From positions 930,001-962,000 of the forward strand of contig OZ246420.1 of NCBI GenBank assembly GCA_965231145.1: 32,000 nucleotides of DNA. The letters run 5' to 3'. Positions 1 through 32,000 of this stretch are shown one piece after another. A model generated the notes under the pieces. The model did no database searches and had not been told where the DNA came from. It saw only the letters and a program-made list of their open reading frames with translations. Numbering within the stretch: the first letter of the stretch is position 1; each line of letters begins with the position of its first letter. The position numbers were made by a program, and so were the translations under genes. Source of the DNA: Candidatus Saccharimonadota bacterium (GTDB lineage Bacteria > Patescibacteriota > Gracilibacteria > Absconditabacterales > Absconditicoccaceae).

Positions 1-108
1 AGAGGCTAAAAACAAGCAGCCAGAAAAGAGACGAACATACTATTCACACCCCTCGAACAACAATGTAAAAACACTTGTGTCCATTTAATTCTCTTGCATA
101 ACACACTT

Positions 109-138
109 AAAAGCCTCCGTATCTGCGGAGGCTTTTTT
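109..138. terminator. Bidirectional intrinsic-terminator-like hairpin downstream of recG and of a + strand gene ending near the window edge
   Basis: AAAA, GCCTCCG (113-119), 6-nt loop, CGGAGGC (126-132), TTTTTT (133-138). The stem is 7 bp and GC-rich. An A-run on one side and a T-run on the other let it act on either strand. Confidence 0.6.
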
Positions 139-267
139 CTTATGGAGATAATGAATAAGTCTAAAAAATCATGAAATAAGATTTTTTAAGACGCATGAAT
201 ATTTCTTCAAGGAAATACTGGGTCAGAATAGCAGATGTCATAAAGAAATACACTTATCAGTATTTCC

Positions 268-2403
268 TTACGATCAAATATTTCAGATGCTGTCTTTCAG
301 TGATTCACGAAGTTCATCGAGACCATCGAGTCATGGATATTTGTCGAGAAGCCATAAGGCTGCTGATTGTACTTTCTCGAGGAATTCCATGTTACCAATC
401 ACTGAAAGCGGGATGTCTGTTTCACCACTCTGGCGAACTCACAAAATCTCTCACGTCCCGCGTAACTGCATATCCATCTCTGCAAGCTTAAATCCATCGT
501 GCGTTTTTTCCAAAGCACGAAGTCTCTTGTATGCATCTCACGACTTATACTTCGTCTCGAGGAAACAATACGACTGCAGATCACTTCTTCCCACACGTCC
601 ACGAAGCTGATGTAACTGTGCAAGTCCAAATCTTTCTGAATTTTTAATAATCATCACGGTTGCTTCCGGTACATCGATACCTACTTCGACGACGGTTGTC
701 GAGACGAGGAAAACAAGTTTTCCTTCTTTAAATTGTTTCATGACAAGATTTTTTTCTGCAGGCTTCATCTTTCCGTGAAGGATACCGATCTTTCACTTGA
801 GCTCAGGATAGAGATCGACGACATTGTGAAACTCCTGTGTCGCAGACGCAAGCTCCATTTTCTCACTCTCTTCAATGAGCGGTGCAATGAGAAAGATTCT
901 TTGTCACTGAGAAATTCTGGTAAGAATCCACTGTTTCAATTTTTTAAATTCTGACTCAGAAATAATTTTCGTATAGATCGGTTTACGACCCTTAGGCATC
1001 TCATCAATGACCGACACATCGAACTCACCGAAAAATGCGAGCGCCATGGAACGTGGAATTGGCGTCGCAGTCATTTGTAAAATATGTGGTGAGCCAAACT
1101 GTTTAAAGAAACCACGCTGACGCACACCAAATTTATGCTGCTCGTCGATGACAGAAAAAAGTAGCTTATGAAAGCCAATGCCCTCCTGCAGCAGCGCATG
1201 TGTTCCGACAACGATGTCGATAAGTCCCTGCTGAAGCTTTTGTTTGAGTTCGTCCTTTTGTGCTTTGCTGACTGAGCCAGTGATAAGTTCTACACGAACT
1301 CAAAGAGGGAGTAAGAGCGCAGCAAGTGAGCGATAGTGTTGCTGCGCGAGCACTTCGAGCGGCGCGAGAAATGCTGACTGACCGCCCATTTCCTTCATCA
1401 CATAATACGCGGCTATCGCCGCGACAATAGTCTTTCCGCTTCCCACATCTCCCTGGAGCAAACGAAGCATTGGACGGTCTTTATGAATATCATCGATGAC
1501 TTGTTTCAGTGCTTTCTTCTGCGCATTCGTCAGTGTAAACGGCAACTTTTCAATAATATCTGACACCGTCTGCCACTGCGCATCAGAGACACCAAATTGT
1601 TTTTCTCACTGATATGCAGCCTTATTGAGCAACGATGAAAGCTGTATTTGCAAAAGCTTATCGAAGAACAAACGATGCTGCGCTTTTTCTTGAAGTTCTC
1701 TTGAATCAGGATAATGCAGATTTCTTATCATCGTTGGAATATCTATGAGCTCATACATCTCCAGCAATTCTTTCGGTAAATGTTCGTGAAAAAACTCAGG
1801 GATGTGTCATATATTTTCCCACATCTTCTTCGCAAACCATACGGGCGAAATCCCGCTTAGTTCTGGGTATATTGGGTATAATCTTCCGACGTTAAATAAT
1901 TTGTCGCTAGTCTCCTCTAGCTGCTGATTGCTAGTCAATGATTCCTCCGAATTTGATTCTAAATTCTGATCTTTGATTTCTGAATTATCAATTGATTCCG
2001 GCGCTTCAGTCGGAATAAGTTCAGGGTGCCAGAACATAATTTTATTCTTGTCTCTTTTCGGTTTGCCGACAACAACGTATCGTTGGTCGGTCTTCAGAGA
2101 AGACAGAAGAAACCCGTTGGAGAAAAAGTTAACCGATGCTTTTGCACCTGCAGTATCGACGACCTGTAATTCGATAATTTTCTTCCCACGTGGAGTTTTA
2201 ATAAGCGTTTTCTTTTGTACAAACACTTTGACGCTATAGACCTCTTCCTCACTCACCATATCGTGCAGCAGTACCATATTTTTTCTATCCTCGTATGCTC
2301 TCGGGAAGTACTGCAAAAATTGCCTAAGGGTAGTGATACCATTGGCTGCGAGAAGGCTGATATATTTGGGTGTGGTTTTAAGATACTCTTTCAGCGGTTG
2401 CAT
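268..2403 (-). CDS. recG: ATP-dependent DNA helicase RecG (711 aa under table 25)
   Basis: Track fragments 538-768, 904-1125, 1300-1566 and 1807-2478, plus the tail 268-537, lie in one minus frame (offsets from 268 are multiples of 3). They join through 11 in-frame TGA codons (1807, 1606, 1300, 904, 793, 538, 451, 439, 331, 283, 274) with no TAA/TAG. Motifs read directly: GDVGSGKT (Walker A), VIDEQHKFG (DEQH box), [46 protein letters not shown] 2401-2403 ([40 protein letters not shown]) is preferred over the TTG at 2478. Stop is TAA 268-270. Confidence 0.9.
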
Positions 2404-2440
2404 ACTCTTATATATAGGCAATTTGCCTTTCAATACCATC

Positions 2441-2468: not shown

Positions 2469-2496
2469 TTAGGGTCAATAGGTGGTGGCATTTTCT

Positions 2497-2914: not shown

Positions 2915-2930
2915 TATAATAGTACCAATG
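2915..2930 (+). promoter_or_regulatory. Consensus -10 box placed 7 nt from the LysE start codon (possible leaderless mRNA)
   Basis: TATAAT at 2915-2920, then agtacca, then ATG at 2928. There is no room for a Shine-Dalgarno sequence. Confidence 0.3.
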
Positions 2931-3557
2931 TGGCATGCTATCGTACAAGGAGTAAGTATTTGACTGCTAATCTGTGTACTGGTTGGACCAGTTTTTTTCG
3001 CTATGCTGGGGATTGCCATGCGCTACTCAAGGCGCGCTGCGATACGGTTTGCAGCAGGCATGCTCCTCAGTGATATGGTGTATGGCGTTCTTGCATATGC
3101 AGGATTCAGTGCGTTTATCGTCGAATGACCACGAAAAACATGGATGTATATCTTCGGAGGCATCATCTTCATGATTATGTGAGGGCATATGATATACACA
3201 ACCCTTCGTCGCCGTCGTGAGGACCCTGCCGAAGTTCATCTGAGAACTCACCCTCATCGAAGTAACTTTCTCGGACAAGGGTTTATTACCAATACGCTCA
3301 ATCCCGGAGTTGTCTTTCTCTGGATCGGGATCGTAGGAACTTCAGTTCCACATTTTGATCATATTTCTACTACCATTATCTTTTTCCTAGCCATTTTTGT
3401 AACTATATTTGGAACTGACTTGCTCAAAATCATACTTGCCCACTCTATCAAACACCTTCTCAATAAAAAAAATCTCTATATTCTTCATCTTATCACAGGC
3501 GGCGTACTGATCATGCTTGGCTTGTTTACGATCGTCAAAACTCTTATCCACATATAA
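2928..3557 (+). CDS. LysE/RhtB-family amino-acid exporter (209 aa under table 25)
   Basis: ATG 2928 is in frame with track ORF 3189-3557 (offset 261). The two join through TGA at 2961, 3126 and 3180. The joined product starts MWHAIVQGVSIGLLICVLVGPVFFAMLG and contains FLGQGFITNTLNPGVVFLW, typical LysE-translocator motifs, with multiple hydrophobic helices. Stop is TAA 3555-3557. Confidence 0.8.
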
Positions 3558-3675: not shown

Positions 3676-4776
3676 ATGTTATTTATCATATCGTGTCCTG
3701 GTGGGGCGTCACAGTTAGTAAAAAATGAGTTGAAGGTACTCGGATATCCAAAGTCACAAGTACTTTCTCCAAGCACCATCCAGTGTGAGGCGGACGAGTC
3801 CGCTATCGCGAAGATCAATCTCCGAAGCAGATTGGCAAACAAAGTATATCTCGTAGTCGGTTCATGAATAGCACCAACTTTTGAGAGGCTTTTTGATATT
3901 GTGCATCGTATCGAGTGGGAAAAATATATTGAAGAAGGACAACCATTTATCGTGACTGCTCGTAGTGATAAATCCATGTTGACCAGCACTCCCGCATTGC
4001 AGGCGATGGGGAAGAAGGCGATAAGCAAAAAACTGACGGGAAATGATGAATGGCGCACAGAAGATGAGACACGCGAGCCAGTAGAGATTATGTTATCGCT
4101 CAATAATAATACTGTGCAAGTATTGCTCAACACAACGGGCGAATCACTTCATAGACGCGGATATCGTTCTCATACCGGAGACGCTCCGCTGAAGGAAAAT
4201 GTGGCTGCTGCACTCGTTATTTCATCTGGATGGAAGTTTCATGAGCCACTCTATGATATCACGTGCGGAGCTGGAACTATATTGATCGAAGCCGCAATGA
4301 TCGCGAAGAATATTGCTCCTGGATTACAGAGATATTTCGCATTTGAAAAGTTTGCATGGTATGACAAAGAGATACTCAGCACTGAGATAAAGCGTGCAAA
4401 CGAGGTTATCATCAAAGATAAAGAGCATGTTATCATCGGAAGCGATATAGATCCTACCGCAATAGCGATTGCAAAAGAAAACGCTGAGAATGCATGAGTC
4501 GATGAGTATATACAATTTTCAGTGCAAGATATGAAGCTTACGCGCAATGGTCGCGGTTGTTATATAAGCAATCCTCCCTATGGCGAGAGGATGAATCCAG
4601 CTGATCTTGATGAGATCTATCAGACATTCGACCAGTTGTTTAGCATGCCTGAAAATTACGGTGGTATCATCACTAGTTACGATTGGCAGCCACATGGCGA
4701 ATTTGATGCAAAGACATTTTATAATGGACCAGACAAAGTAACATTCTTTAAGTTCAGAAAACTATCCAGCAATTAG
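3676..4776 (+). CDS. THUMP-domain class I SAM-dependent RNA methyltransferase (RlmL/UPF0020-like, 366 aa)
   Basis: Track ORFs 3676-3867, 3901-4497 and 4522-4776 are in one frame (offsets 225 and 846) and join through TGA at 3865 and 4495. Motifs: DITCGAGTILIEAA (SAM-binding motif I), IIGSDID, ISNPPYGERM (NPPY motif IV). The N-terminal part is THUMP-like. The second TGA falls in ENAENA-G-V. Stop is TAG 4774-4776. Confidence 0.85.
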
Positions 4777-4870: not shown

Positions 4871-5425
4871 TTATCTTGATTCCTTTTCTAGTTTCTGCGC
4901 CAGTCTGTACAGTGTTAAGAACGGTACAAATCTCTGAGCTTTCACCATTGGTTCTTTTCTGTTGATCAATCATTCTGAATACAGCTTCTCCATATGATAC
5001 TCGTAGAATGGATGTTCTTCGCTTTCTACGTTCGTCTGCTCATACTTCTTGCCATACAGCATTCTTGAAAGCACAGTCATATACTCTCCTCTTGTTAATA
5101 TGTCATTTGGTCTGCTTGTATTCATCAGTCCGAGCTGACACGCTTGGATCATATATGCTTTTAGTCCATCTGGATCTTCTCCGCTGAATACGCATTGCTT
5201 ACTTGTATCTGGCAGCTTGCCTAATATGTTCTTCGCAAACTCTCCCATGATCTTTGCAAGCTGCGCTCTCGTGATCTGATCGTAATAACGTGCTTGTAGG
5301 AATGTAGGCATCGTCGTTGACCCAATAGCACGATTGAAACAGTATGATTGTTGCTCTTCTCCCTTCAATGCTCTACACTTTGCTAATGCGAGACGCAGAA
5401 TATCTGAAGTTAAATCAGGCAATCA
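4871..5425 (-). other. C-terminal wall-anchor region of giant protein 1: three SLH-like repeats (approximate bounds)
   Basis: The translation contains ...YYDQITRAQLAKIMGEFAKNILG..., FSGEDPDGLKAYMIQACQLGLMNTSRPNDILTRGEYMTVLSRMLYG and HPFYEYHMEKLYSE-G-LINRKEPMVKAQRFVPF. These fit the S-layer-homology pattern (aromatic/acidic start, GI/GL core, xTRxE/Q helix). The Gly of the third G-L/I core is a TGA (4970-4972). Confidence 0.5.
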
Positions 5426-8400
5426 TGCACTACTACATGTTCTGTCATAGTAGCTCAGCGAGTAATCTCCGTTTGGACAGACATCCTTCGTCAGATACAC
5501 TCATCCGCCTCCTCATGCCGATTGTACCGATGGAGTTGTGGCTAATGGCACTCCAAATATACTAAAGTTTGAGAAGTGCGGTGTATCACATGTCACCGTC
5601 TTATTGACCATATCCACCACACAATTATCTAACTCTGACCAGCTTGTTCCATCATGACTATATATCTTCAACGTGCTTTCATCTACTCAACTCACATCCT
5701 GATCACGATAACTTAATGTCAGCGTCAATCCCGTATCAAAGTTCGTCACACGCTCTACGTCTCCACTATATGCTTGTAAGTCATATAACGCTCCTACTTG
5801 AATAAGCGATGGATTGGGCAATCCAAGCGCTACCATAGCAGCTCCCGTATCCAACTGTTTTCCCTGGAAGATAAGAGTCGGTGCCGAAGCAACCACATCC
5901 GCAGGAATAATAAGTTCTAATATTGTTCCTATATCCGCAACCATAGAGAATATGGCTCATACAGGAACATCTATGATATCTTGTTCTTGAGTTACAATAT
6001 CAGAATTGTTGGGGCACCCTAGAGTAGTAAACGAATAATTAGTTCCTGTATAGCGGCTTCCCAACATATCTGTACCTATAAACCTATACGTATAGGTTGT
6101 ACATGCAAACAAACCAGAGATAGATCAACTATGTGTTGTGACACGAGGAGAAACATCCCCTTCCGCGCTCTGCAAGCCATATCATGTCGATATACTATAC
6201 TGAATTTGCGTAGAAGAAGGTATCGTTGTTTCCCAGTTAAAAAGCATAGATGTCATTCATGTAAGATGACTCATTCATGTAGCATATGCTGCAAGTATAT
6301 TTGGCATGACTGAAACTGAATCACCAGGTCCCTCTCCTTGTGCATTGACTGCTGAGACCGTGAACACATATGACACACCATTTGCCAATCACGTGAAGAT
6401 AATCGGGCTATTTGTTCCGGTCTTTACCAACAATCACGTATGCGATCTTATTGTATAGTAATCTATAAATAATCCTCCGTTATCTAATGGCGGCGCAAAC
6501 GTGAATATAGCCGCGCCACTTGCAGCTTTTGCTGCTATATCAAGAGGAGCTGTTACTGGTGCAGTTGTTGGCGTCGTTATGGTTAACGTCACAGCCCCAC
6601 TTGCCCCTTCTCACTGTATATTAAATGCAGAAATAAAGAACGTATGAGTTGTACCGTTGATAAATCCTGTCACCGTAATAGGAGAAGTTGATGATGTTGC
6701 TACGACCAATCAAGTAATCGATGTTATCCTATATCATAGTATAGCCGATCATCAACTGGTTAATGGTGGATCAAAATCAAACACCGCCTCACCATTTGTA
6801 CCTGCTGCTTCAATATTTTGTGGAACACCTGGAACTGTTACCGGAACGACACTATTTGAAGGAGCACTTAACACTCATGTAGTTACAGAAGTTTGCGCAA
6901 CAACAGTGAATGTATATGTCACACCATTCGTTAAGCCCTCAACAGTAATTGGACTATCTGTTCACGTCGCAATGATATTTCACGGAGACGATCTCACTAT
7001 GTAGTAGAGAATAGGAAATCCTCCATCGTCGGTCGATGCGTTAAATGATATGGTTGCCTGTTCATTTCCTGCCACAGCCGTCACACTCGTAGGTGCATTT
7101 GCTATAGTTGACGGAATAGTAGCATTTGAAGCACTACTTACTTCTCAGGTTCACACGCCATTTCTTGCCACTACGGTAAATGTATATGAAACTCCGTTCG
7201 TCAATCCTGGCACTGTAATCGGACTTCACAATCATGTCGCCGCAACATTTCATGGTGATGATGTCACAATATATTCAATGATGCCTGTTCCACCATCATA
7301 CGTCGCCCCACTAAATGCAATAGTTGCCTCTTGATTTCCTGCTATCGCCGTCACATTTGTCGGCGCATTTGGCAACGAAAGAGCGACGACTTCACTTGCT
7401 ATAAAGCTCTCGGTTCCTGTTCCAATAGCATTTACCGCAGCCACTGAAAATATATAAGGAGTACCGTTTCTCAGTCAGGTAATGGTAATCGGGCTATCGT
7501 CTCACGTTACCATGAAATCTCCAGTATTTGAGCCAACAACATAATACAAAATATTTGATCCTCCACTGTTAGTAGATCAACTAAATGATATGATTGCTTG
7601 TCAACTACTCACTTCTGCCACCACATTTGTTGGTTCACTTGGAACCGTTGCCACAAGCACGCTGTTTGAAGCCGCACTTTGCGCTCAAAATCACACACTA
7701 TTTCTTGCCATGACAGTGAATGTATAGAAGACACCGTTTGTCAATCAATTCATGATGATAGGCGCCCCACCAGATGCCACAATAAAACTACCTGGACTCG
7801 ACGTCACAAGGTATTCGATGATTCCTGTTCCTCCATCACTTACTGGCGGCGCAAACCAGATTGAAGCTGATTCATTACCTCACGTTGCAATGATATTTAT
7901 AGGCACCCCTGGTACTGATACTGGAATGATGCTATTTGAAACACTGCTTGCTGGTCATGTTCCGATCGCATTCACTGCTACCACAGTAAATGTATATCCG
8001 GTACCATTAGTCAATCAAGTAAGGCGTATAAAACTACCTCAACCAGTAAATGAAATATTCCCAGGATTTGATGTTGCTACATAGTACAAGATGTTTGATC
8101 CTCCGCTATTCGTTGAGCCACTGAATCTTACCGTTGCCTGACCATTTCCTCATGTTGCTGTTACATTTGTCGGCGCATTTGGCACCGTTGCAGGAATGAC
8201 GCTATTTGATACGCTACTTGCCGTTCATGTACCAATTGCATTAATAGCTCTTACCGTAAATGTATATGATGTTCCGTTTGTCAATCATGTGATTGTAATT
8301 GGACTTCATGTTCATGTGAAACTTATGTTTCACGGTGACGACGTCGCTATGTAATAAAGAATATCTGAGCCTCATGTATACGTTGAGCCACTGAATGAGA

Positions 8401-11400
8401 TAAGCGCCTGTCAACTACTAGCTGTCGCGAAAACATTTGCCGGCGCATTTGGCACCGTTGCAGGAATGACGCTATTTGATGCGCTACTTACGGTTCATGT
8501 TCACGCAGCATTGAGTGCAACTACAGAGAATGTATATGAGACGCCATTAGTAAGTCATGCGATGATAATTGGACTTCATGTTCATGTGAAACTTATGTTT
8601 CACGGTGACGATGTTGCTATGTAATAAAGAATATCTGAGCCTCATGTATACGTTGGAGCAACGAATGAAACGGTTGCCTGCCCGCTTGAGCCAGTTGCCA
8701 CTAAGCTCGTTGGTTCATTCGGTGTTCAGATTGGCGTAACATTGTTTGAAACATTACTCCACGTTCCTGTTCATGCTCCATTCACAGCTGCTGCCCTAAA
8801 AGAGTATGTCGTGCCGTTAATCAGTCATGTAATCGAGATCGGACTTCATGTTCAAGTCACCACAATACTTCATGGCGATCATGTGAGAATATAATAGAGA
8901 ATAGTTGATCATCATGTATACGTTGGTGCGATGAATGAAATGATTGCTTGTCCACTTGATCAGGTTGCGACTAGACTTGTCGGCGCATTTGCTACGGATA
9001 TTGGCGTCACACTACTTGATGGATTACTTACTGGTCCAGTTCCAATTGCATTGACCGCTGCAACTGTAAACGTATAAGACAAACCATTGATCAGACCTGA
9101 TAAAACTACCGGACTATCACTTCCCGTATATGAAATACCTCACGATGACGACGTAACAACATAATAAAGGATATCAGAACTTCCACTATATGTTGAACCA
9201 CTAAAGGACACCGTTACTTGTCAGCTGCTTGTCGCAGTTGCTACTACGTTCGTTGGTGCATTTGGAACACTCATAGGAGTAACGCTATTTGATCCACTGC
9301 TTGCCGATCCTGTTCGAACGCTATTTCTTGCGGTAACCGTAAAAGTATACGATACACCATTGGTCAATCACGTTACCGTGATTGGACTTCCAGTCCCGGT
9401 AAATGATATGTTTCCCGGATTTGATGTCGCGATATAATAGATAATTCATGTGCCACCATCATCGGCAGATCAACTAAATGAAACTGTTGCCTGACCACTT
9501 GCTGCCACCGCAGTTACATTGGTTGGCGCACTAGGAGGAAGAATTTCACTTGCAATTGGCTCCTCAAATGTGATAGACCAATTGTACAATGGTAATCCTG
9601 TACTATTTGACGCCAAAGAGACGCTCTCATCACTATCGCGGATGTTTCATCATACAGCGGTTGCAAGAGTCGAACTTCAACACGTTCCCAATCCAGCAGC
9701 CGGGCCCGTAGGACAAGACCATGCATAACGAAGCATCTGATGAGTTCCATTTGCAGCTCCACTGAGTTGGATCTGCACCTGAGTATTTCCACTCACCAAT
9801 GAAACCCCACTAATTGTGGTTGTACTACCGCCACTCTGCACAAATTCAAAACCATAGTTCGTACGTTGGGCAACATTTCATGTATCAATATTGAGTGTTC
9901 CTACTGGGATATTATAACTTACCGTAATCACGCTCCCTGACCTCACCACTGACGTAGGCATAAGAGGATTCCACGACTGTCCCTGAAATACTACTTTATT
10001 TATCACCTTTGCAAACATTTCTCCGACATGTTTGGATGACGTGCTTGTCAGACGAACTTTATCTCAAAGGTATGGATACTGATATTTTGGACCGACAAGG
10101 ATGATCTTCCCTGGGTTATTTTTATGTGCACTCAATTGTGCTACTGCTATACTACCACTCCACGTAGAATTTACCTGATTGATAAACATAGGCAATAAAA
10201 CTCCTGTGGTTCACATCAGGGCATTAATATCAAGTTGGTAATCTCTCTGCCACTCAACCAAAAATGCTTCATACCCGGCAGTAACAGATAGCGCATCACT
10301 TTCTCCATGAACAATAGTTACAGCAAGAGGTTTATAAATCCCTCCCGTTGCTTCTACTAAAGATTTTGAAATAGAGGCTTGCGCCATACCTTTTGCATAA
10401 GGAGCCGTTCCTTTCTTCAGTCAAGAATATGATGCATTTGCACCATGGAGTCCTACAACAATAGGACGGGCCAACACTCCTGTATACGCCCTAAGAGAGT
10501 TTGCGATACCTGCTGATGGCGTTTCCGCACCAGATTCTATGAGCAATCAAAGTTGATTTCACGTACCCTGTGGGTTTCCTCAACTAAGAGCGAGATTGTT
10601 ATAGGGCTGAAAAACACTAATCGCTGAGGAATTCAGTCCATAAGAGAGACTCTCTCCATTGGAAAGAATATGATAATATGTTTGGGTGTTTGTTGCTACC
10701 GCACTAGTGATAGATCCGCTTCCTACTCACTTACTATTTATAGCAGAAACCCTGAAATCATACGCTATATTATTAAAAAGTCACGTCACCGATCAGGTAA
10801 GTTCTGTACTTATACTATCTGAAAACACCGTCCAACTTGATCATGTAGAAAATTTATATTCTATCTGATAATCAAAAACCGGATCTATTGTAGAAAGTCA
10901 TGACCACGCCAAATGCACCACTCAACTTCCTACAGATGTTACGTAAAAATTTCTAGGAGCCCATGGTGTTGTTGCAGAAACACCTGGATTTCCTTCATAC
11001 ACCGATTGTATTTGCTGAGGAGTAAGAATTTGATCCCACAACTGCGCATCATCCATAAATCACGACCACATATGAGCTCCGCCGTTATATGTTCCTATAT
11101 ATGCTATCGTACTCGCGGCAGGAAGATTCGGCGCTATCCCACTTGCAACATATGCTCAGTTTTTATAAAGTGTATATTTCCTTGTTGTACCATCAAAAGT
11201 CATTGCAGCATGCACCCATGATCCGAGAGTGAGCGATACAGGATCGGTGGCCCAAGCAGTACCTCAAGCTGCTCCATGCCCTGCAATCAGCGAATTACTC
11301 ACAGAGAAAAAACTAGGATTATTCGCGTTTCCGTTAGTAATGATACTACGTGTAGCAAGAACAGTGCCTGTTGGAATAAACACCCATGCTGCCTTACTAA

Positions 11401-14400: not shown

Positions 14401-14470
14401 CCTGGAAACAAAAAATCCCCAATGTTGTTCGTCTTGAAAACATAGATTTCGACTTACGGTTTAGATTCAT
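4871..14470 (-). CDS. Giant secreted cell-surface protein 1 (3,199 aa): signal peptide, 4x(LamG_3-Fn3), SGNH/SASA-like esterase, 12 tandem Fn3, stalk, 3 SLH-like repeats
   Basis: Ten track fragments lie in a single frame: 14171-14470, 13949-14149, 13382-13927, 12875-13141, 11984-12355, 11744-11944, 11423-11683, 7250-7444, 5687-5944 and 4970-5422. All offsets from 4871 are multiples of 3, and 14470-4871+1 = 9600. I hand-scanned every gap codon by codon and found only TGA, no in-frame TAA/TAG. Start is ATG 14468-14470 and stop is TAA 4871-4873. The N-terminus MNLNRKSKSMFSRRTTLGIFCFQVFFALIITIAPGKVYA/AIPAP is a Sec-type signal peptide. Domain evidence is in the sub-features below. Confidence 0.85.
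6305..9545 (-). repeat. Coding tandem array of 12 fibronectin type III domains, period about 270 bp (about 90 aa)
   Basis: Repeat starts fall near 9540, 9270, 9000, 8730, 8460, 8190, 7900, 7640, 7370, 7100, 6830 and 6560. Each unit reads like (V)PNAPTNVxAxxxSGQAxVSFxxPxxxGGSxIxYYxVTSSPGNISxTGTGSPITxTGLTNGxxYTFTVxAxNxxGTGxxS. A 13th, divergent purple-acid-phosphatase-type Fn3 follows at about 6010-6300 (WETT..IQYS..YG..THSGSISGL..TTYTYRF..FTT). Confidence 0.85.
9550..10690 (-). other. SGNH / sialate-O-acetylesterase (SASA, DUF303)-like carbohydrate esterase domain plus C-terminal beta-sandwich, embedded in giant protein 1 (approximate bounds)
   Basis: The translation reads YYHILSNGESLSYG (GDSL/GQSN-type nucleophile block), IVVGLHGANASYS, AVTIVHGESDA (QGESD-type block), LSAHKNNPGKIILVGP, DKVRLTSTSSKHVGEMFAKVI, then ...GGNIRDSDESVSLASNSTGLPLYNWSITFE. 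I recognise these motifs by eye only. No equivalent segment exists in giant protein 2. Confidence 0.45.
10700..14360 (-). repeat. Four LamG_3 (concanavalin-A-like lectin) domains alternating with four Fn3 domains, module period about 880-900 bp
   Basis: Each LamG reads FxGxxxFVxVxxxLxxxFTKAAWV...G/W-VHVAxTFDxxTxKYxLYKNGVxVASG...G-YIDDxxxWNxxLTxxQIxAxY. Each Fn3 reads APTNxxxxxxxGxVxxxWSxxxxxPVTDYQIEYKFxT..W.....STxT...ITGL....YDFRVSAVN. Segments 11697-11782 and 12579-12664 are an identical 86-nt stretch. Confidence 0.8.
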
Positions 14471-22243: not shown

Positions 22244-22288
22244 ATCTTTTATTCTGTCTACCAAATAAACGAAAATCTACTATCTCAA

Positions 22289-22405: not shown

Positions 22406-22738
22406 TTATGCATTCATATCATCACCATGTGAGTGACCATGATCATCAAATCTTCTTTCACCAAATGGCTTTCTTTCTCTTTCTTCGGCCATAGAAACGC
22501 TGATAAGTCTTTCTGAAGGAGCAATAGTCTTTTCATTTGACTCAGCAATTGCTTTCTGCGCATCTTCTTCAGTGACATATTCTACGAAACCGAAGCCTCT
22601 CTTTCTCCCGAACTTATCCAAAGGAAGTTTAACTGAGGCAACCTCACCAAATTGGGAAAAATATTGATGTACTTGTTCTTCGTTAAGATTCCAGTCGAGG
22701 TTTCTTACGAACAGTTTTTTTGTCTCAAGTTGTGTCAT
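22406..22738 (-). CDS. RRM-type (RNP-1/RNP-2) RNA-binding protein, 110 aa
   Basis: RNP-2 is KLFVRNL and RNP-1 is RGFGFVEY, at canonical spacing. The C-terminal tail is acidic and His-rich. No in-frame TGA. Stop is TAA 22406-22408. Confidence 0.85.
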   Translation of the reverse strand: MTQLETKKLFVRNLDWNLNEEQVHQYFSQFGEVASVKLPLDKFGRKRGFGFVEYVTEEDAQKAIAESNEKTIAPSERLISVSMAEERERKPFGERRFDDHGHSHGDDMNA

Positions 22739-23998: not shown

Positions 23999-25285
23999 AT
24001 GTTAATCAAGCACATTACACAGGAATATGTTGATCAGGAAATCACCCTGCAAGGGTGGATTGCGCAGACGCGCTCGTCTGGTAAAGTAGTGTTTATCAAC
24101 CTTCGTGATGGTTCATGATTTATCCAATGTGTTGCCGAACCGCAATTTGTTGGTCAGGAAAAATTTGATGAGTTGGCGGGATTGAATATTGAATCTGCTG
24201 TAGAGCTCAAAGGTATTGTTTCAAAGCATCCGAAAAAAGATGAGTATGAACTCCAGATTCGTTCGTTCATCGTCTATCACTCAACGAAAGACTACCCTCT
24301 TGGACAGAAGGAACACAACCCAGATTTTCTTTTCGACGAAAGACATCTCTACCTCAGATCGAAGTCACAATGGGCAATTCAACGTATTCGTGATACGATC
24401 ATCCATGCAACATACGACTGGATGAGAGCACATGATTTTATTAAAATTGATGCGCCAATTTTCACACCAAGCGCATGTGAAGGAACGACTGAACTATACG
24501 AAGTGGAACATGTGAACGGAGAAAAGATGTATCTTTCTCAATCGGGGCAACTCTATATTGAAGCAGCTATCGCTGCACACGCACGCGTGTTCGATTTTGG
24601 TCCTGTGTTCCGCGCAGAGAAAAGCAAAACAAGAAGACACTTGAATGAGTTCTGGATGATGGATGCTGAGATGGCATTTTGTGGACAAGATCAGAACATG
24701 GTCTATCAGGAAGAACTCATCTACTATATCATCCAGGAAGTGCTTGCAAAACATAGAGCAGAACTCGCAATTCTCGAGAGAGACACGAAGCCACTCGAAG
24801 CTATCAAGCTTCCATTTGTGAGAATGACTCACGATGAGTGGATCGACGATCTTATAGCAAAAGGATTTGATGCGAAGCATGGTGAAGACATCGGAAGCGA
24901 TATCGAGATGCAGTACATGGAAAAAGTTGATCAACCAATTTTCGTGACACACTTCCCTATCGGCATCAAAGCATTTTACACAAAAGAAGATCCAAACAAA
25001 CCAGGCTACGGTCTGTGTGCCGACCTCCTCGCTCCTGAAGGATGCGGTGAAGTCATCGGAGGTGCTCAGCGTGTGGATGACTATGAGACACTTCTTGCAA
25101 AGATAAAAGAGCACGGACTTAAAGAAGAAGACTTCAACTGGTATCTCGACCTCAGAAAATACGGTTCAGTTCCCCACGCAGGATTTGGTTACGGTCTCGA
25201 AAGACTCGTGAGATGGATGTGTGGATTGCATCACATACGTGAAACTATTCCGTTCCCAAGATATGCGAATAGAATTAGACCGTAA
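23999..25285 (+). CDS. asnS: Asparaginyl-tRNA synthetase (428 aa under table 25)
   Basis: ATG 23999 is in frame with track ORF 24173-25285 (offset 174) through a single TGA at 24116-24118, inside [16 protein letters not shown] (family consensus RDG(S/T)GF(I/L)Q). Class II motifs: [24 protein letters not shown] (motif 2) and [12 protein letters not shown] (motif 3). The N-terminal part is an OB anticodon-binding domain. Confidence 0.92.
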
Positions 25286-25312: not shown

Positions 25313-25347
25313 ACTATAGGTAATTAATATTATCTATAGTTTTTTTG
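25313..25347 (+). terminator. Intrinsic terminator of asnS
   Basis: ACTATAG (25313-25319), a 14-nt AT loop, CTATAGT (25334-25340), then T7-8. Confidence 0.6.
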
Positions 25348-25423
25348 TATCTCATTTTGAGATCTATGAAAAAACTTATATGCTGGGCAAAATTTTTACT
25401 TGCTCTACAAAAACTTATGCAAC

Positions 25424-25514
25424 CAATCCCCCTTCCTCCACACTTCGGTGGAGTTCATCCCCCTTTGGAAATGAAAAAGGGGGAAGCCCCGCAGAAGTGC
25501 GGGGAGAGGGATTG
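25424..25514 (+). other. GC-rich 91-nt four-way-junction (cloverleaf-like) element at the 5' side of the DUF559 gene
   Basis: Closing stem CAATCCC (25424-30) pairs with GGGATTG (25508-14). Three hairpins follow: CTCCAC-acttcg-GTGGAG (25436-53), TCCCCCTTT-9nt-AAAGGGGGA (25458-84) and CCCCGCA-gaag-TGCGGGG (25487-504). That is 29 bp in 91 nt within AT-rich surroundings. Under table 25 it lies in the same open frame as the DUF559 ORF. Confidence 0.35.
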
Positions 25515-25557
25515 AGCATATAGCAATGATGAGGCTCGTGTTGAGCCGAAATGTCGC

Positions 25558-25935
25558 ATGCTCTACGATAGAGACCTAGTAAACTATAGAGGTCTTACGC
25601 GAAAGTGATGACACATTCCTTACAGTAAAAGACTCAAGCAACGAGGCAGAGATATGAGAAACAACTTGACAAAGGCAGAATCCATTTTGCGAAAAAGATA
25701 TCTTAAACGACTAAAAGTTCCTGTCCTCAGACAAAAGCCGCTAGATCATTATATTGCAGATTTTTATATACCTTCGGCGAAACTAGTGATTGAAGTAGAT
25801 GGACTGATTCACTCTACGCAAAAAGCCATAGCATACGATAAGAAAAGAACAGAGTTACTTATGCAATATGGCATAAGAGTCATAAGATTTACCAATGAAC
25901 AAATATGTGACTGAAAGAAGTGAGTGAAATTATAA
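25558..25935 (+). CDS. DUF559 (Vsr-like endonuclease fold) domain protein, about 125 aa; start uncertain
   Basis: The track ORF 25654-25914 extends both ways under table 25. Upstream it passes TGA-TGA at 25606-25611, giving ...RKGGHIPYSKRLKQRGRDMRNNLTKAESIL, which matches the family N-terminal pattern IPYN.xLxxxARxLRxNxTxxE. Downstream it passes TGA 25912 and 25921 to TAA 25933-25935. The core reads RQKPLDHYIADFYIPSAKLVIEVDG...RFTNEQI. In-frame ATGs are at 25558 (preferred), 25417 and 25366. Confidence 0.7.
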
Positions 25936-26012: not shown

Positions 26013-26234
26013 ATGCCTCATCCACAACCGAATAATCCCCTTCACTGAGTGACTCTCAAAGAGATAGTCACTTTTCTGGTAGAAAAATATGGGTGGATGA
26101 AATTGGGAAATATGATACAGATAAATTGTTTCAGAAATGATCCGAGCATCCACTCCTCTCTTACATTTCTGAGGAAGCATGAGTGGGCAAGGACAGAGGT
26201 TGAAGAGCTGTATGTGAGAACCAAAGGTAAGTAG
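26013..26234 (+). CDS. DUF2132 (VF530-like) small protein, 73 aa
   Basis: ATG 26013 gives [67 protein letters not shown]. The TGA at 26046-26048 supplies the Gly of the family motif PLHGVTL. The track had started at the GTG just after it. Confidence 0.75.
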
Positions 26235-26264: not shown

Positions 26265-26297
26265 ATATTCCCATAGAAATATGGGGATATTTTTTTA
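26265..26297 (+). terminator. Hairpin plus T-run after the DUF2132 gene
   Basis: ATATTCCCAT (26265-74), agaaat, ATGGGGATAT (26281-90) form a 10-bp stem including one G-U pair, followed by T8. It overlaps the ATG at 26281, which argues for the 26308 start of the next gene. It leaves almost no promoter space, so read-through or attenuation is possible. Confidence 0.45.
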
Positions 26298-26307
26298 TTA
26301 TGGTTTC

Positions 26308-26985
26308 ATGAAACTTCACCCTGCGACATTTGAATTTTTGAAAGCAATCAATGAGCACAACTCAAGAAAATTTTTTGCTTCCGCAAGAGGACTCTATGAT
26401 GAGATCTGGGAAAATGTGCAGGAAATAGCCGCAGCGCTGATAAGTAACATAGCCAAGTCAGATAGCGACTATGCTGATCTACAGCCAAAAGACTGTCTGT
26501 TTCGCATCTACCGCGATGCAAGAAGAATAAAAGATGGTGATCCGATCTATAAGAATAATTTCGGTATGGCTATCGGACCATGAGGAAAGAAAAGCACCCT
26601 ACCCTGATATTATCTACATATCCAGTCAGGCAATAAATCATTTTTCTGATGAGGTGTTTATTGGCCGACCAATGAGGAGTTATTCAACCTCAGAAACTAC
26701 ATCAAGACACACGGAAAAGAATACAAGAAACTCGTAAGCAATTCCGCTTTCAAAAAATATTTTGGCGAGGTCGAAGGAAAAAAGTCGATCAGAGTGCCGG
26801 CGTGATTTAAGGAACAGGATCCATTTTTGGAAATTATCATGAAGAAGCAGCATTTGTTTTTCACACATATTACCGACAAAGAGATGCTGCAATGTGACAT
26901 CGTAGAACTCTGCATGGAACGCGTCAAAGCATCGAAAGAGCTTATGGATTTTCTGATGAGAGGCTGCACGACCAAAGCAAAATAA
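26308..26985 (+). CDS. DUF2461 (TIGR02453) family protein, 225 aa under table 25
   Basis: MKLHPATFEFLKAINEHNSRKFF... then FRIYRDARRIKDGDPIYKNNFG. The frame continues through TGA at 26581, 26605, 26647, 26650 and 26803, giving GP-G-GKKSTLP-G-YYLHIQSGNKSFF-GG-GVYWP ... RVPA-G-F. These are the family's PGYY, GGG and P.GF glycines. Stop is TAA 26983-26985. Confidence 0.8.
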
Positions 26986-27048: not shown

Positions 27049-27468
27049 ATGAAAATAGGACCTTACTTACACTTTCACGGGAAGGCAGAAGAAGCGATGA
27101 ATTTTTATAAAGATATTTTCAATGCGCAAATCGTTGGTGAGATCAATAGATATGGAAATGCGCCTGCTGAATATGCAAAAGATGAATCTATGAAAAATTG
27201 GATCATGCATGCATTCATCAAGTGGGAAAACAATGAAATAATGTTTGCTGACTCTCCGGAATCAGATATGAAATTTGGAACAAACAACTATATCTCTGTG
27301 ACGTGTGATAGTGAAGAACAAGTAGATAGAGTCTATGCAAAGCTCAGTGAGAACGCTCAGCAGATTCAAATGGAACTTGCAGATACATTTTGGGGATCTA
27401 AGTTTGCAAGTCTTATCGACAAGTTTGGTGTCGCATGGTATCTTGGATGGGACAGACCACAAACGTAG
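27049..27468 (+). CDS. VOC-superfamily PhnB-like protein (glyoxalase/bleomycin-resistance fold), 139 aa
   Basis: MKIGPYLHFHGKAEEAMNFYKDIF ... IMHAFIKWENNEIMFADS ... FWGSKFASLIDKFGVAWYLG fits the PhnB/3-demethylubiquinone-methyltransferase-like domain pattern. No TGA. Stop is TAG 27466-27468. Confidence 0.7.
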   Translation: MKIGPYLHFHGKAEEAMNFYKDIFNAQIVGEINRYGNAPAEYAKDESMKNWIMHAFIKWENNEIMFADSPESDMKFGTNNYISVTCDSEEQVDRVYAKLSENAQQIQMELADTFWGSKFASLIDKFGVAWYLGWDRPQT

Positions 27469-28692: not shown

Positions 28693-28707
28693 GATGCTTC
28701 TTTTTTT
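28674..28707. terminator. Bidirectional terminator between convergent genes
   Basis: An A-run, GAAGCA (28683-88), gtaaga, TGCTTC (28695-700), then T7. Confidence 0.6.
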
Positions 28708-29425
28708 ATCTTGGAACATATTGCTTGTCTCTTATAAGCGCTTCAAGAGCATCGAGAAATTTATTGTAGCTAATACGATGATCAAGAGCCTTTTTTGCCA
28801 TATTATTATATTCGACAAATGACTCCCACAAAAATGTTTCTTTTTTCTCATCCACACACGAAGACTCATTTCTAACGGCCAAATAGTTTTCTACTTGTCT
28901 TATCTCACGAACTATAGAAGAGCACGCACCAGCAAATGCAATTTTTTCCAGATCAGTGATAGAAAATGGAGCAACAAGATCTTTCGTCTCACAAACTACC
29001 GCAATCCACGGCTGAATTTGCACTTTTATATTCCAATATTTCTTTTGTATTTTTTCGTCGTTCTCTAGCTTACGCATAGTCGTTACGCGCCTTTTAGCTT
29101 TCTTCATTCCCTTTTCGTCTGCAACTATTGATTGTACATGCCGCAGGAAAGGCTCAGACAAGTTTATATATTCATCATATACCTGCTCATTATGTTCATA
29201 GATCATCTGGCCATCATCTCTGAACGCATGTAAAATCTGAGCTTGCGTATCTGCCACAATAAGTGCTTCATGCCCTGACCACTCTTTTCCATTCAATAGA
29301 AAAAATAGCTCATGTGCCACAAAATTGCCTATATCTGTTTTTACACGGTACAGTTCTGGCTGATTTTCATTGTTTTCGACACCATATATCGTAGCTACTT
29401 TACGAGCTAATCAAGTTGTTTTCAT
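28706..29425 (-). CDS. Hypothetical protein, 239 aa under table 25, tightly coupled to the upstream glycosylase gene
   Basis: The track ORF 28706-29320 starts at a GTG. The frame stays open upstream through one TGA (29411-29413) to ATG 29423-29425 (MKTT-G-LARKVATIYGVENNENQPELYRVKTDIGNFVAHELFF...). Only one codon separates this ATG from the TAA of the preceding gene. No family recognised. Confidence 0.55.
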
Positions 29426-29428
29426 CGT

Positions 29429-30247
29429 TTACTTATCACACAAAAACAAATATGCTCCTCTTCTTTCTATGATTTTTTCTTTTATCATTCCTTTAATTAC
29501 TTCATGAAACTTCTCATGCGGATACATTTTTTCAATATCTGCTATTTTTCATTTTTTATTTTTTATTAAATATTTAATCGTGTTTCCTCTCACTCGTCTT
29601 GTGGAACCGACGAACTGCGACTGAGGTGCAGAACGTATACCTGTCTTCTTACTCGTTAACACGAGTGCACCATAATCCATGAGTGCATTGTGTCGCTCAC
29701 GCGATTTGCCAGCTGGAATAAGTGTCTTAGCCACCTCTCTGAGTTCTTTATCACTCAGTGTTGGATCGAGACCAAGCTCGGTGATGATCACACGCTTAAT
29801 GTTAATATCTAGCACCGGGACTTCAGCATTATATGCAAATGCCATGACCGCATGCGCAGTGTAGTAGCCTACTCCCGTAAGAGCCAATAAGTCCTCTTCT
29901 GTATGTGGAAAATATTTCTTATCTTTTATCTCTGATCTCTTATTGGAGATTTGTATACCAGCTTTCCATAAATTAAGTCCACGACGATTGTAGCCGAGAC
30001 CAGACCACATTTCGAGTATCGTAATCTGTGATGCCTGAGCAAGATCTTCGACTGTGGGAAATTTCTCCAGCCGAGCTTTGTATTTGGTCTTTACTCTTTC
30101 TACCTGTGTTTGCTGCGACATAATCTCCGAAACTAAAATCTTGTAAGGATCGGTTGTCCTACGCCATGGTAAATCACGAGCATTGGTTTCATATCGTGAG
30201 AGTATCTTTGTCTGTAGCGCTTTTTTCTTTGTTGCATTGATTATCAT
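29429..30247 (-). CDS. MutY/EndoIII-superfamily HhH-GPD DNA glycosylase without Fe-S cluster cysteines and with a winged-helix-like C-terminal extension (272 aa)
   Basis: LPWRRTTDPYKILVSEIMSQQTQVERV is the MutY N-terminal signature including the catalytic Glu. LTGVGYYTAHAVMAFAY is the HhH motif. VPVLDINIKRV holds the catalytic Asp. After HNALMDYGALV there is no C-x6-C-x2-C-x5-C; the sequence is instead FVGSTRRVRGNTIKYLIKNKK. The frame continues through TGA 29549-29551 (KK-G-KIADIEKMYPHEKFHEVIKGMIKEKIIERRGAYLFLCDK) to TAA 29429-29431. Confidence 0.75.
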
Positions 30248-30672
30248 ATCCTGATAATAGTAAAATACACATGAAGAACAATTTATTTTTATAGTCTATT
30301 GTTTTTCTTCGTCCTGCCGGACGGGCGTTACTTTTTAGCATATCCCTAAAACCCCCGTAGTAAATACGGGGAAAAAGGTCTAGCAGATTTTAGCACTACG
30401 AGCCTGTGAGTTATTCACATATTGACTACTAAAGCCTTTCGTTCTCACGAACTCAATGCTCTTCGCATGAATCATTATTCACGGACTGGCTAAAGGAGAC
30501 GCAGGAAAAATCGGCATGTGAGAAACTTTTACCCCATCTCCGGCAGGAGAAAAGAAAATGCAAAATCCAGAGCAATAATATCATCTTCTGCCTTTATCAG
30601 AGCCGTTTTTGCGCTACGCCTTGCATCAAAAAGGCTAATCTGTATAGTGGTGACTACGTTTAGCTTATTACT

Positions 30673-31014
30673 ATGGTAACTATGGATTTTACAGGAAAGA
30701 TCATCTACAAAGGAGCAAAAGAGACTGTTGGACAAAATGGTTTTGAAAAACTTTCAATCGTACTCGAAGAAGTTACAGATAAAGATTATAAATCATCTCT
30801 TATGATAGAGTTCTTCAAGGATAAAATTGAACTTGCGGCACCTTTGAAGATGGGAGACACTATTAAAGCGTATGTTAACCCACGCGCAAAAGAATACAAT
30901 GGTCGTTGGTATAACAGCGTATCATGCTGGAAGATTGATATGATCTCTCAAGGATCTGGAAAAGCTACAAGTTCTGAAGACTCATATGATGACAATGAAG
31001 ATCTTCCGTTTTAA
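30673..31014 (+). CDS. DUF3127 OB-fold protein with SSB-like acidic C-terminal tip, 113 aa
   Basis: (MVT)MDFTGKIIYKGAKETVGQNGFEKLSIVLEE...MGDTIKAYVNPRAKEYNGRWYNSVSCWKID matches the DUF3127 pattern (i.GKii....g..f.k.efvle....gd.v.v.f....re.nGRw.....aWki). The tail is ...SSEDSYDDNEDLPF. An alternative ATG is at 30682. Confidence 0.75.
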   Translation: MVTMDFTGKIIYKGAKETVGQNGFEKLSIVLEEVTDKDYKSSLMIEFFKDKIELAAPLKMGDTIKAYVNPRAKEYNGRWYNSVSCWKIDMISQGSGKATSSEDSYDDNEDLPF

Positions 31015-31023
31015 TGGTAGAAC

Positions 31024-32000
31024 GTGAAAACGTTTTATCGTTTGATCGTATCATCCATCTCTATGAAATTACTTAAAGTTTCTTTCCCATACGAAAAGAT
31101 AACGCCACTTGCCATCAAAAGCATCACGGCTGCATATTTTCGCGGACATAAGAATCGCCCTTCTATGCAAGAGGCGTTTCTTTTTTCGCACATACAGAAA
31201 CACGCCGATACAGCCTTTGGAAGTGTGCATGATCTCTCCAGAGTCGACTCTGTTGAAGCTTTTCAAAGAGCAATTCCTCTCCAGCATTATGAAAGCATCT
31301 ATCCGCGGATCGAGCGCTGCCTGCGTGGAGAAAAAGATATACTTGTACGTGGAAAGATAGACCGGTTTGCTACATCATCGGGAACAACAGGGAAAAACAA
31401 GTATATTCCTGTGACGAAAGCTGCATTGAAATATAATCACTATCGTGCTGGAACGGATATGATTATGGCGTATGCAAGGGAAAATCCGACGACGAAAATG
31501 TGGCCTGGACAGGCGCTTGGCATTGGCGGATGATTTTCGTACAACCCATTTACCGGTAAGAAAAACGTTGGTTTCATCTCTGCCATACTGCAGCGCAATA
31601 TGCCACTACTCGTAAGGATGATGAAACAGCCTAAGGCAAATATTTCATACTTGAGTGACTGGCAAAAGAAAGTAGAGAAGATGATCGAGGTCACGAAAGA
31701 GAAAAATATTACCTCAATCTCCTGACAACCATCGCGATGCTCTGCGTATCTTGAGAAGATGCTCGCACATACAAAGAAAAAAAACATATTGGAAGTATGG
31801 CCGAACTTTGAGCTCGTCATACGATGAGGCATGGCAATAGACCTTTACAAGCCTATTTTCGAGCGTCTGCTCCCTTCGGAGCAAGTAAGATATTGCCAAG
31901 TCTACAACGCAAGTGAATGATTTTTTGCAGCCCAGCATGAAAACAATCGTGACGACATGCTTCTGTTTGTTGAGCATGCAGTATTTTATGAGTTTATACC
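31024..32000 (+). CDS. GH3 auxin-responsive-promoter family (acyl-adenylate-forming) protein, 3'-truncated by the window edge
   Basis: FATSSGTTGKNKYIPVT is the GH3/ANL P-loop-like motif. The frame stays open to position 32000 through TGA at 31531, 31723, 31825 and 31918 (GIGG-G-F, SIS-G-QPS, IR-G-GMA, NASE-G-FFA). The start is either GTG 31024 or ATG 31063. Confidence 0.75.

Follow-up and report, generated by a model that had tools for sequence, protein, structure and literature searches.

The genes of the window analysed here, 32,000 nucleotides of contig OZ246420.1 (assembly GCA_965231145.1, positions 930,001 to 962,000), appear to be written in a genetic code with three changes from the standard one, in which UGA encodes glycine, CGA and CGG encode tryptophan and only UAA and UAG act as stops. 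We give this code, jointly with the assignment of the window to the chromosome of an uncultured Absconditabacterales-type bacterium within the candidate phyla radiation (CPR), from the GTDB class in which Gracilibacteria and Absconditabacteria are joined, a probability of about 0.85 on the basis of sequence comparisons. The phenomenon is a known one, here met in a new member, UGA = glycine having been known in this clade since 2013 and CGA and CGG = tryptophan having been predicted since 2021. Shulgina and Eddy 2021 (eLife 10:e71402, PMC8629427) cite Campbell et al. 2013 and Rinke et al. 2013 for NCBI table 25, the code of Candidate Division SR1 and Gracilibacteria, and themselves predict UGA = glycine together with CGA and CGG = tryptophan for Absconditabacteria. 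A sequence-only reading of the window had assigned it genetic code 25. The UGA part of that assignment stands, but as a full description table 25 is incomplete for the window, where CGA and CGG behave as tryptophan codons: in alignments they fall on tryptophan or other aromatic columns and on no conserved arginine column.

The reading frames themselves identify TGA as a sense codon. The longest stop-to-stop open reading frame (ORF) of the window increases from 388 aa under code 11 to 3,200 aa with TGA as sense, and it stays at 388 and 389 aa when TAG or TAA, respectively, is freed in place of TGA. Gene sets were built greedily and without overlaps, separately for each code reading. Under code 11 this gave 58 genes with a mean of 113 aa and a coding density of 0.61, and with TGA as sense 20 genes with a mean of 499 aa and a density of 0.93, so that the gain which the sequence-only reading had proposed as a check was indeed found (0.32). 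Ten standard-code CPR control loci had a density of approximately 0.9 with either reading, and eleven loci of recoded relatives responded in the same way as the window. The greedy density was used as the control instead of a crude ratio of total ORF length per locus, which failed to tell recoded loci from standard ones where G+C is high. We accepted 17 genes with 9,511 codons in total and counted in them 239 in-frame TGA codons and neither a TAA nor a TAG. The two other frames of the same genes contain the three triplets in roughly equal numbers (TGA 236 and 274, TAA 174 and 201, TAG 189 and 145). The 16 complete tabulated genes end with TAA (13) or TAG (3) and never with TGA, in agreement with the earlier claim that TAA and TAG alone close the frames. 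All 12 positions which the sequence-only reading had cited as examples (1300, 451, 439, 24116, 26605, 26647, 26650, 26803, 26046, 27711, 31918 and 4970) are TGA codons in the quoted frame and context. Its statement that such codons occur in almost every gene was slightly generous; 13 genes carry them and six do not (2497-2859, 22406-22738 encoding an RRM protein, 23086-23658, 27049-27468, 27960-28460 and 30673-31014 encoding a DUF3127 protein). The identical DNA was found with zero mismatches on Logan contigs of three sequencing runs (ERR4405439, ERR4405440, ERR4405441), and therefore an assembly error is not the cause of the TGA codons. Code-11 gene calls on the identical contig from ERR4405440 break the genes for AsnRS, DUF2461, GH3 and LeuRS into pieces.

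The residue encoded by UGA is, judged by aligned homologues, glycine and not tryptophan. Among proteins with solved homologous structures (RecG, AsnRS, VF530 and the RlmL-like methyltransferase), seven TGA columns hold an invariant glycine and none holds tryptophan. In RecG, the TGA codons at residues 500, 651 and 655 align with glycine in Mfd and in the RecG proteins of Thermotoga maritima and E. coli, and that at residue 369 with glycine in E. coli; the remaining ones lie in variable regions, with tryptophan aligned to none. The single TGA of asnS (24116) corresponds to glycine in three solved AsnRS structures and in 44/46 standard-code homologues, structure 2jvw reads NNPLH-G-ITL at the VF530 codon (26046), and the TGA at residue 273 of the RlmL-like protein is glycine in 4/4 solved homologues. 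A search of the PDB with DUF2461 gave no genuine match and was replaced by a homologue search, and since plant GH3 structures aligned too weakly over the TGA and CGA or CGG (CGR) columns, bacterial homologues were used instead. Over 87 distant DUF2461 homologues, the five TGA columns contain glycine in 39, glycine in 76, alanine in 65 with glycine in 20, glycine in 82 and glycine in 72, and tryptophan in none; over 70 distant GH3 homologues, the four columns contain serine in 57 and glycine in 62, 62 and 62. We pooled the columns of AsnRS, DUF2461, GH3 and DUF559 on which at least 60% of the standard-code homologues agree. In these the window TGA codons fall on glycine seven times, on alanine once and on serine once, and the GGN codons fall on glycine in 34/39.

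Relatives of the window and its internal repeats lead to the same residue. A scan of a genome collection with AsnRS returned 80 loci, of which the 30 closest carry 1 to 11 in-frame TGA codons each, and the more distant CPR genes none. In 31 recoded AsnRS genes compared with 46 standard-code ones, 142 TGA codons occupy 41 columns that are 66% glycine against a background of 5.9%; the eight commonest residues that standard-code AsnRS have there do not include tryptophan. When only columns with at least 80% conservation are considered, 70 of the 81 TGA codons in these 31 genes meet a glycine. Furthermore, the 29 Fn3 copies of the two giant surface-type proteins A and B contain 125 TGA codons in match columns, at which the other copies have 58% glycine compared with 8% overall. 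At the canonical Fn3 'G-L' column, 20 copies have TGA and eight have GGN, and one column that is tryptophan in the long Fn3 subtype is solely glycine or TGA in the short subtype. The glycine assignment of the sequence-only reading is thus confirmed by 7/9 conserved window columns, 70/81 AsnRS columns of the clade and the Fn3 paralogue columns, and tryptophan, which it had named as the residue that would argue against glycine, aligned to no TGA column in standard-code homologues, those of RecG, AsnRS and DUF2461 included. Its claim that the codons fall on family-conserved glycines does not hold for the MGMT codon (27711), where solved MGMTs have serine or a gap. TGA makes up 26.5% of all glycine codons in the window, 29-32% in the giants and 3% in AsnRS, and it does not occur in some housekeeping genes. 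The neighbouring genes for pyruvate kinase, enolase and pyruvate phosphate dikinase (PPDK) (locus L086, 16014-18799 (-) and 18958-20471 (-)) lack TGA altogether over about 1,400 codons, 111 of them glycine codons; set against the window average, this suggests avoidance of TGA in genes with high expression.

CGA and CGG were examined because Shulgina and Eddy had predicted them to be tryptophan codons in Absconditabacteria. Both are rare among the 9,752 codons counted (CGA 19, CGG 7, AGA 144, CGT 92, CGC 37, AGG 27, TGG 118). This corresponds to 19.5 CGA, 7.2 CGG and 121 TGG per 10,000 codons, with AGA as the dominant arginine codon. The two would make up 18% of all tryptophan codons, at 26 positions that are arginine under table 25. 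The columns on which they fall are as follows; for DUF559, whose solved structure covers the C-terminal part only, the alignment of homologues was used.

RlmL-like protein, residue 50, CGA: tryptophan in 4/4 solved homologues
MutY-like protein, residue 18, CGA: tryptophan of the 'W-Y...LPW' motif of E. coli MutY
MutY-like protein, residue 185, CGA: tryptophan (8uuc) or phenylalanine (MutY)
MutY-like protein, residue 59, CGG: phenylalanine
MutY-like protein, residue 218, CGA: glutamine
GH3, residue 101, CGG: tryptophan in 54/70 homologues
GH3, residue 225, CGA: tryptophan in 65/70 homologues
GH3, residue 82, CGG: tyrosine, phenylalanine or tryptophan
GH3, the other CGA column: histidine in 59 of the 70 distant homologues
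DUF559, residue 74 (25690), CGA: tryptophan in 30/31 homologues
Giant A, residue 491, CGG: tryptophan in 7/7 other LamG repeats
Giant A, residue 14, CGA: TGG-encoded tryptophan in giant B

In addition, three CGA codons of giant B (residues 1343, 1433 and 1523) correspond, on reading the sequences, to tryptophan in the most similar repeat of giant A (residues 1828-1917), and the CGG at its residue 540 meets the conserved tryptophan of a 'W-S-G-Y-I-D-D' motif in the ungapped reading only. In the pooled conserved columns, the CGA and CGG codons of the window fall on tryptophan (3), histidine (1) and tyrosine (1) and never on arginine, in contrast to CGT, CGC and AGA, which fall on arginine in 31/38.

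The same codons were then compared at the DNA level between the window genome and its relatives. In the GH3 genes of the window genome and of three recoded relatives, CGA or CGG and TGG interchange at shared columns, and the histidine column is CGA in 4/4. Over nine genes (AsnRS, GH3, LeuRS, MutY-like, DUF3127, DUF2461, the DinB-like ORF, RRM and a TsaC-like ORF, the last named by its position matching Sua5/YciO/YrdC genes of the syntenic relative L083), CGR is paired with TGG approximately 83 times and with AGR or CGY not once. In conserved AsnRS columns of the recoded relatives, CGA falls on tryptophan 30 times and on arginine 10 times, CGG on tryptophan four times and on arginine twice, and CGT, CGC, AGA and AGG fall on arginine in 480/494. 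All 12 of the CGR codons on arginine come from three genomes, L005-L007, with 76% AsnRS identity. The closest relative (L001, 88% AsnRS identity) has CGG at two invariant tryptophan columns, and the 27 recoded relatives other than L005-L007, L001 included, have CGA and CGG on no conserved arginine column and mostly on tryptophan columns. Since CGA and CGG occupy invariant arginine columns in L005-L007, these genomes, as far as alignments can tell, read both codons as arginine and follow plain table 25. Thus the boundary of the sense-codon change runs among near relatives.

Several observations weigh against the proposed code or fit it imperfectly. Regarding UGA, the TGA at residue 64 of the RlmL-like protein aligns with Phe/Phe/Phe/Cys in the four solved homologues instead of glycine, and the GH3 TGA at residue 157 is serine in distant homologues, though glycine within the clade. 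The MGMT column and several of those in RecG and DUF559 are variable, none of them with tryptophan. Regarding CGA and CGG, the DUF559 CGA at residue 58 (25642) is arginine in 14/31 homologues, the remaining CGA sites of DUF559 apart from residue 74 are variable, and about 10 of the 26 sites lie in variable or unevaluated columns, those of LysE being among the unevaluated. The G+C content of the window (0.41) is slightly above the range of 0.26-0.38 that PMC8629427 reports for the clades with reassigned CGA and CGG, where rarity of these codons is interpreted as early-stage usage. No tRNA gene (by ARAGORN), prfA or prfB was found in the window, in about 9.5 kb of its right flank, in about 4 kb of its left flank or, apart from unrelated tRNA genes in three of them, in the loci of 36 relatives. 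Finally, the gene for PPDK, outside the window but on the same contig about 8 kb to the right (L086 18958-20471 (-), approximately at window coordinate 40,000), has CGG at the invariant catalytic arginine of 'PVT(I/V)-R-LLDPP', and it is the sole gene in which CGR is paired with arginine codons (3 versus 0 with TGG).

The PPDK anomaly extends beyond the window genome. The residue is arginine in every solved PPDK. The syntenic PPDK of L083 (20308-21527), which is 57% identical, has CGA at the catalytic arginine column and a second CGA at 'VPIA-R-LAAAQ'. A metagenome scan with PPDK returned one close relative (L089, 4729-7542), which uses a non-CGR arginine codon at the catalytic column; its CGR codons apparently lie at 'YR-R-' and 'RL-R-SEKG', read by eye against what we take to be the family consensus. 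In the window genome the gene also differs in composition, with a G+C of 0.49 versus 0.41, CGT and CGC as 75% of its non-CGR arginine codons, a richness in GGC and no TGA among its 40 glycine codons. The L089 gene has a TGA after the family C-terminus, possibly the original stop of a donor that is now read through. A sampled recent donor of horizontal transfer is not supported, as the best matches outside the clade are about 45% identical. An incompletely adapted, horizontally acquired gene or some incorporation of arginine at CGR would each explain the anomaly, with numbers too small to decide between them. The anomaly was not found described in those portions of the papers on the code of this clade that were available to us. 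We consider it unlikely, though worth stating, that CGA and CGG are decoded in a dual or context-dependent manner as tryptophan and arginine, or that the host keeps a horizontally acquired gene in the code of its donor; if so, the genome would hold a natural sense-codon reassignment in an ambiguous intermediate stage or a retained donor-code gene. The anomaly is a modest lead and a concrete place to look for ambiguous decoding.

Among the alternative explanations, a standard code in which the TGA codons are due to pseudogenisation, assembly error, selenocysteine or programmed read-through would account for the bare presence of in-frame TGA and nothing more. It is refuted, with next to no probability left to it, by the 239 TGA against no TAA or TAG in frame, the mismatch-free recurrence of the sequence in independent assemblies of three runs, the non-random positions of the codons on glycine columns and the same pattern across 30 related genomes. 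Code 4, in which UGA is tryptophan, agrees with the fact that TGA is clearly sense and with many public translations of relatives, which give tryptophan at the TGA positions. This database tryptophan is, however, an artefact of translation, as an NCBI entry translated with code 25 (P0019) has 0 tryptophan and 11 glycine where entry P0010 has 13 tryptophan and three glycine. Tryptophan content would rise from 1.2%, counted from TGG alone, to 3.7%, and since no tryptophan column lies beneath a window TGA in standard-code homologues and glycine occupies 70/81 conserved AsnRS columns of the clade, code 4 is refuted by the column counts and we regard it as extremely improbable.

The remaining alternatives concern CGA and CGG. 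Plain table 25, the code named by the sequence-only reading, keeps both as arginine. Its UGA assignment is fully supported, L005-L007 place CGA and CGG at invariant arginine columns, DUF559 has a CGA on a column with an arginine plurality (residue 58), and PPDK, encoded beside the window, carries CGG on an invariant arginine column. Nevertheless, in the window these codons lie on tryptophan in 4/4, 54/70, 65/70, 30/31 and 7/7 of the aligned residues and on none of the conserved arginine columns that CGT, CGC and AGA occupy in 31/38. With PPDK excepted, CGR pairs with TGG and with no other arginine codon, and the closest relative, L001, has CGG at invariant tryptophan columns; plain table 25 is therefore very unlikely to be the code of the window. 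Ambiguous or gene-dependent decoding of CGA and CGG, with PPDK and perhaps DUF559 tolerating or needing arginine, has in its favour that the window genome and L083 have CGG and CGA at the same catalytic column despite 57% identity, that L083 has the second CGA on arginine, that the CGR codons of L089 apparently occupy other arginine positions (by eye), and that DUF559 has CGA on one tryptophan column and on one of arginine plurality. According to PMC8629427, experiments would be needed to exclude ambiguous translation. But the numbers are small, with two to three codons per PPDK gene, the atypical composition of PPDK fits an acquired and incompletely adapted gene, and all other genes are consistent with tryptophan only, so that we hold this explanation to be distinctly unlikely. 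The code with UGA as glycine and CGA and CGG as tryptophan accordingly remains our preferred reading of the window.

The decoding machinery that this code would require is inferred from the published scheme, because the recoverable sequence (about 45 kb of the genome) contains no tRNA or release-factor gene. Following PMC8629427, a tRNA-Gly with the anticodon UCA would read UGA, release factor 2 would be absent, tRNAs with the anticodons UCG and CCG and with tryptophan identity elements would read CGA and CGG, and tRNA-Arg(GCG) would keep CGU and CGC as arginine codons. ARAGORN detected no tRNA(UCA), tRNA(UCG) or tRNA(CCG) in the window, the flanks of the same genome or the 36 relatives' loci; unrelated tRNA genes are present in three of these (L025, L029 and L033), and L033 has a tRNA-Arg(GCG).

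The preferred code closely resembles the one predicted for Absconditabacteria (SR1) in PMC8629427, sharing the same three reassignments, rare CGA and CGG, AGA as the main arginine codon and relatives labelled Absconditabacterales. It differs in that the G+C of the window lies above the reported range, that the codon meanings are derived here from alignment columns and paralogous repeats, and that the neighbouring PPDK has CGG at an invariant arginine. PMC13092985 and a 2026 bioRxiv preprint repeat the CGA and CGG = tryptophan scheme and treat the variant as established by prediction. NCBI table 25 has the same UGA = glycine, the same UAA/UAG-only stops and the same host clade, but it keeps CGA and CGG as arginine, whereas in the window they behave as tryptophan; L005-L007 fit the table as written. 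Table 4 is like the window in using UGA as a sense codon and in the expectation of termination independent of release factor 2, and unlike it in the amino acid, which is glycine in the window, and in belonging to an unrelated lineage. Code 4 is used by Mycoplasmatales, Entomoplasmatales and some insect endosymbionts.

The position of the host is indicated by several features. The nearest relatives of its AsnRS are metagenome-assembled genomes labelled Absconditabacterales, Gracilibacteria, 'Peribacteria' or unclassified Patescibacteria, with 64-88% identity. All of them have TGA at glycine columns with one exception, L016, which has no in-frame TGA; the placement of the organism by the sequence-only reading in the Gracilibacteria or Absconditabacteria is borne out by these matches. 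SR1 bacterium Aalborg_AAW-1 is among the DUF2461 matches, and the gene order RlmL, RRM, AsnRS, DUF2461, HhH-GPD, DUF3127, GH3, LeuRS, PK and PPDK is as in GCA_030429145.1. A placement within the Absconditabacterales is a tentative one, made on single-gene similarity, gene order and the shared code. The gene content is housekeeping in character, and hence the window is bacterial chromosome and not phage.

Through the window, a further lineage joins the clade with the triple reassignment; its AsnRS is 88% identical to that of the nearest genome representative. The choice of translation table has consequences for its proteins. Table 11 shatters the genes and table 4 puts tryptophan at 239 glycine positions. 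Table 25 would mistranslate 26 tryptophan positions as arginine, including conserved tryptophans of the RlmL-like, MutY-like, GH3 and DUF559 proteins. Public translations of relatives are often wrong in the same manner, with tryptophan at TGA-encoded glycine columns and arginine at CGR-encoded tryptophan columns (DUF2461, entries P0001-P0018; GH3, entries P0121-P0169), and such mistranslated entries contaminate alignments and family profiles. A public collection also applies an inconsistent code to one organism: on the ERR4405439 contig (L120), which covers window positions 1-4985 and 4 kb to the left, its calls span the entire genes (RecG 723 aa, RlmL 366 aa), and on the sister contig of ERR4405440 they are code-11 fragments. 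The left flank on L120 encodes a DksA/TraR zinc-finger protein and RecJ.

The genes of the window, identified by Pfam and solved-structure (PDB) searches, are listed below with their strand and reassigned codons.

268..2403, minus strand: recG, 711 aa (PDB 1gm5, E 6e-126); 11 in-frame TGA, 1 CGA (2080)
2928..3557, plus strand: LysE-type translocator, 209 aa (Pfam LysE, E 5e-18); 3 TGA, 2 CGA, 1 CGG
3676..4776, plus strand: RlmL/THUMP-type methyltransferase, 366 aa (Pfam UPF0020, RlmL_1st, THUMP); 2 TGA, CGA at 3823-3825
4871..14470, minus strand: giant surface-type protein A, 3,199 aa (Pfam Laminin_G_3 x4 and fn3); 105 TGA, 3 CGA, 1 CGG (12998)
14618..22264, minus strand: giant paralogue B, 2,548 aa; 99 TGA, 3 CGA, 1 CGG (20645)
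22406..22738, minus strand: RRM RNA-binding protein (Pfam RRM_1, E 6e-21); no TGA
23999..25285, plus strand: asnS, 428 aa (PDB 5zg8, E 5e-125); one TGA (24116-24118), no CGA or CGG
25345..25935, plus strand: DUF559 (Vsr-like endonuclease) ORF, start uncertain (Pfam DUF559, E 5e-21); 5 TGA, 4 CGA
26013..26234, plus strand: VF530/DUF2132, 73 aa (Pfam VF530, E 2e-30); TGA at 26046
26281..26985, plus strand: DUF2461, 234 aa (Pfam, E 3e-50); 5 TGA (26581, 26605, 26647, 26650, 26803)
27049..27468, plus strand: glyoxalase-fold / 3-dmu-9_3-mt family protein (Pfam); no TGA; identical on the Logan contigs of ERR4405440 and ERR4405441
27540..27830, plus strand: MGMT DNA-binding-domain protein, 96 aa (Pfam DNA_binding_1, E 2e-18); TGA at 27711
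27960-28460, plus strand: DinB-like ORF (by eye; no Pfam match), TGA-free
28706..29425, minus strand: hypothetical protein, 239 aa, a TGA-sense ORF with no Pfam match; 1 TGA, 1 CGG (29141)
29429..30247, minus strand: MutY-like HhH-GPD glycosylase, 272 aa (PDB 8uuc, E 3e-37, and E. coli MutY); 1 TGA, CGA at 30194, 29693 and 29594, CGG at 30071
30673..31014, plus strand: DUF3127 protein (Pfam DUF3127, E 5e-19); no TGA
31024..31998, plus strand: GH3-family adenylating enzyme, running past the window end (Pfam GH3, E 1e-42); 4 TGA (including 31918), CGG at 31306 and 31363, CGA at 31735 and 31822

With TGA as a sense codon, shadow ORFs that reach 647 aa and contain as many as 31 TGA arise antisense to real genes (6935-8704 (+), 10361-12304 (+), 16757-18067 (+), 27714-28475 (-), 22400-22762 (+) and 30529-30951 (-)), and a naive longest-ORF caller prefers several of these to the actual genes for the MGMT-domain, DinB-like, RRM and DUF3127 proteins. 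The greedy picks 27714-28475 (-), 22400-22762 (+) and 30529-30951 (-) were rejected as shadow ORFs since the opposite strand has genes supported by Pfam.

Giants A and B are tandem paralogues, each with an N-terminal hydrophobic segment, four modules of Laminin_G_3 plus Fn3, and roughly 12 short Fn3 repeats. Over their C-terminal 480 aa A and B share 81% identity, and this part has an SLH-like match that remains below threshold (E 0.008, 16.6 bits against a cut-off of 20.8 bits), so that the label 'SLH core' given to this part by the sequence-only reading is not sustained. The flanking RlmL and RRM genes adjoin in L083 with no giants between them, which makes the 17.4-kb giant pair lineage-specific. 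Short-read Logan contigs end within the pair, and the assembly of its repeats deserves a check. Giant membrane-anchored surface proteins of several thousand residues with fibronectin-type adhesion domains are described in PMC8080830 for Vampirococcus lugosii and other Absconditabacteria. By description, A and B are like them in size, in membrane anchoring, in fibronectin-type domains and in their Absconditabacteria-type genome, and differ in their architecture of Laminin_G_3/Fn3 modules with Fn3 arrays and in forming two tandem paralogues.

Among the smaller genes, the DUF559 ORF (196 codons) is unusually dense in reassigned codons (5 TGA, 4 CGA) and is extended at its N-terminus by about 90 aa not found in homologues, leaving its true start and the integrity of the gene uncertain. 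The MGMT-domain protein (27540-27830) lacks the N-terminal domain and has an 'ACYKV' motif in place of 'PCHRV', which we take to be the active-site motif of the methyltransferase; it may be a non-catalytic, DNA-binding homologue. Just to the right of the window, a NUDIX domain is inserted into LeuRS (L086, approximately 12381-15212 (-)); its Nudix box is perfect, and three glycines of the box are encoded by TGA. The insertion is also found in the LeuRS of L083, L084 and L085, in some of them with additional hydrolase or His_Phos_1 domains.

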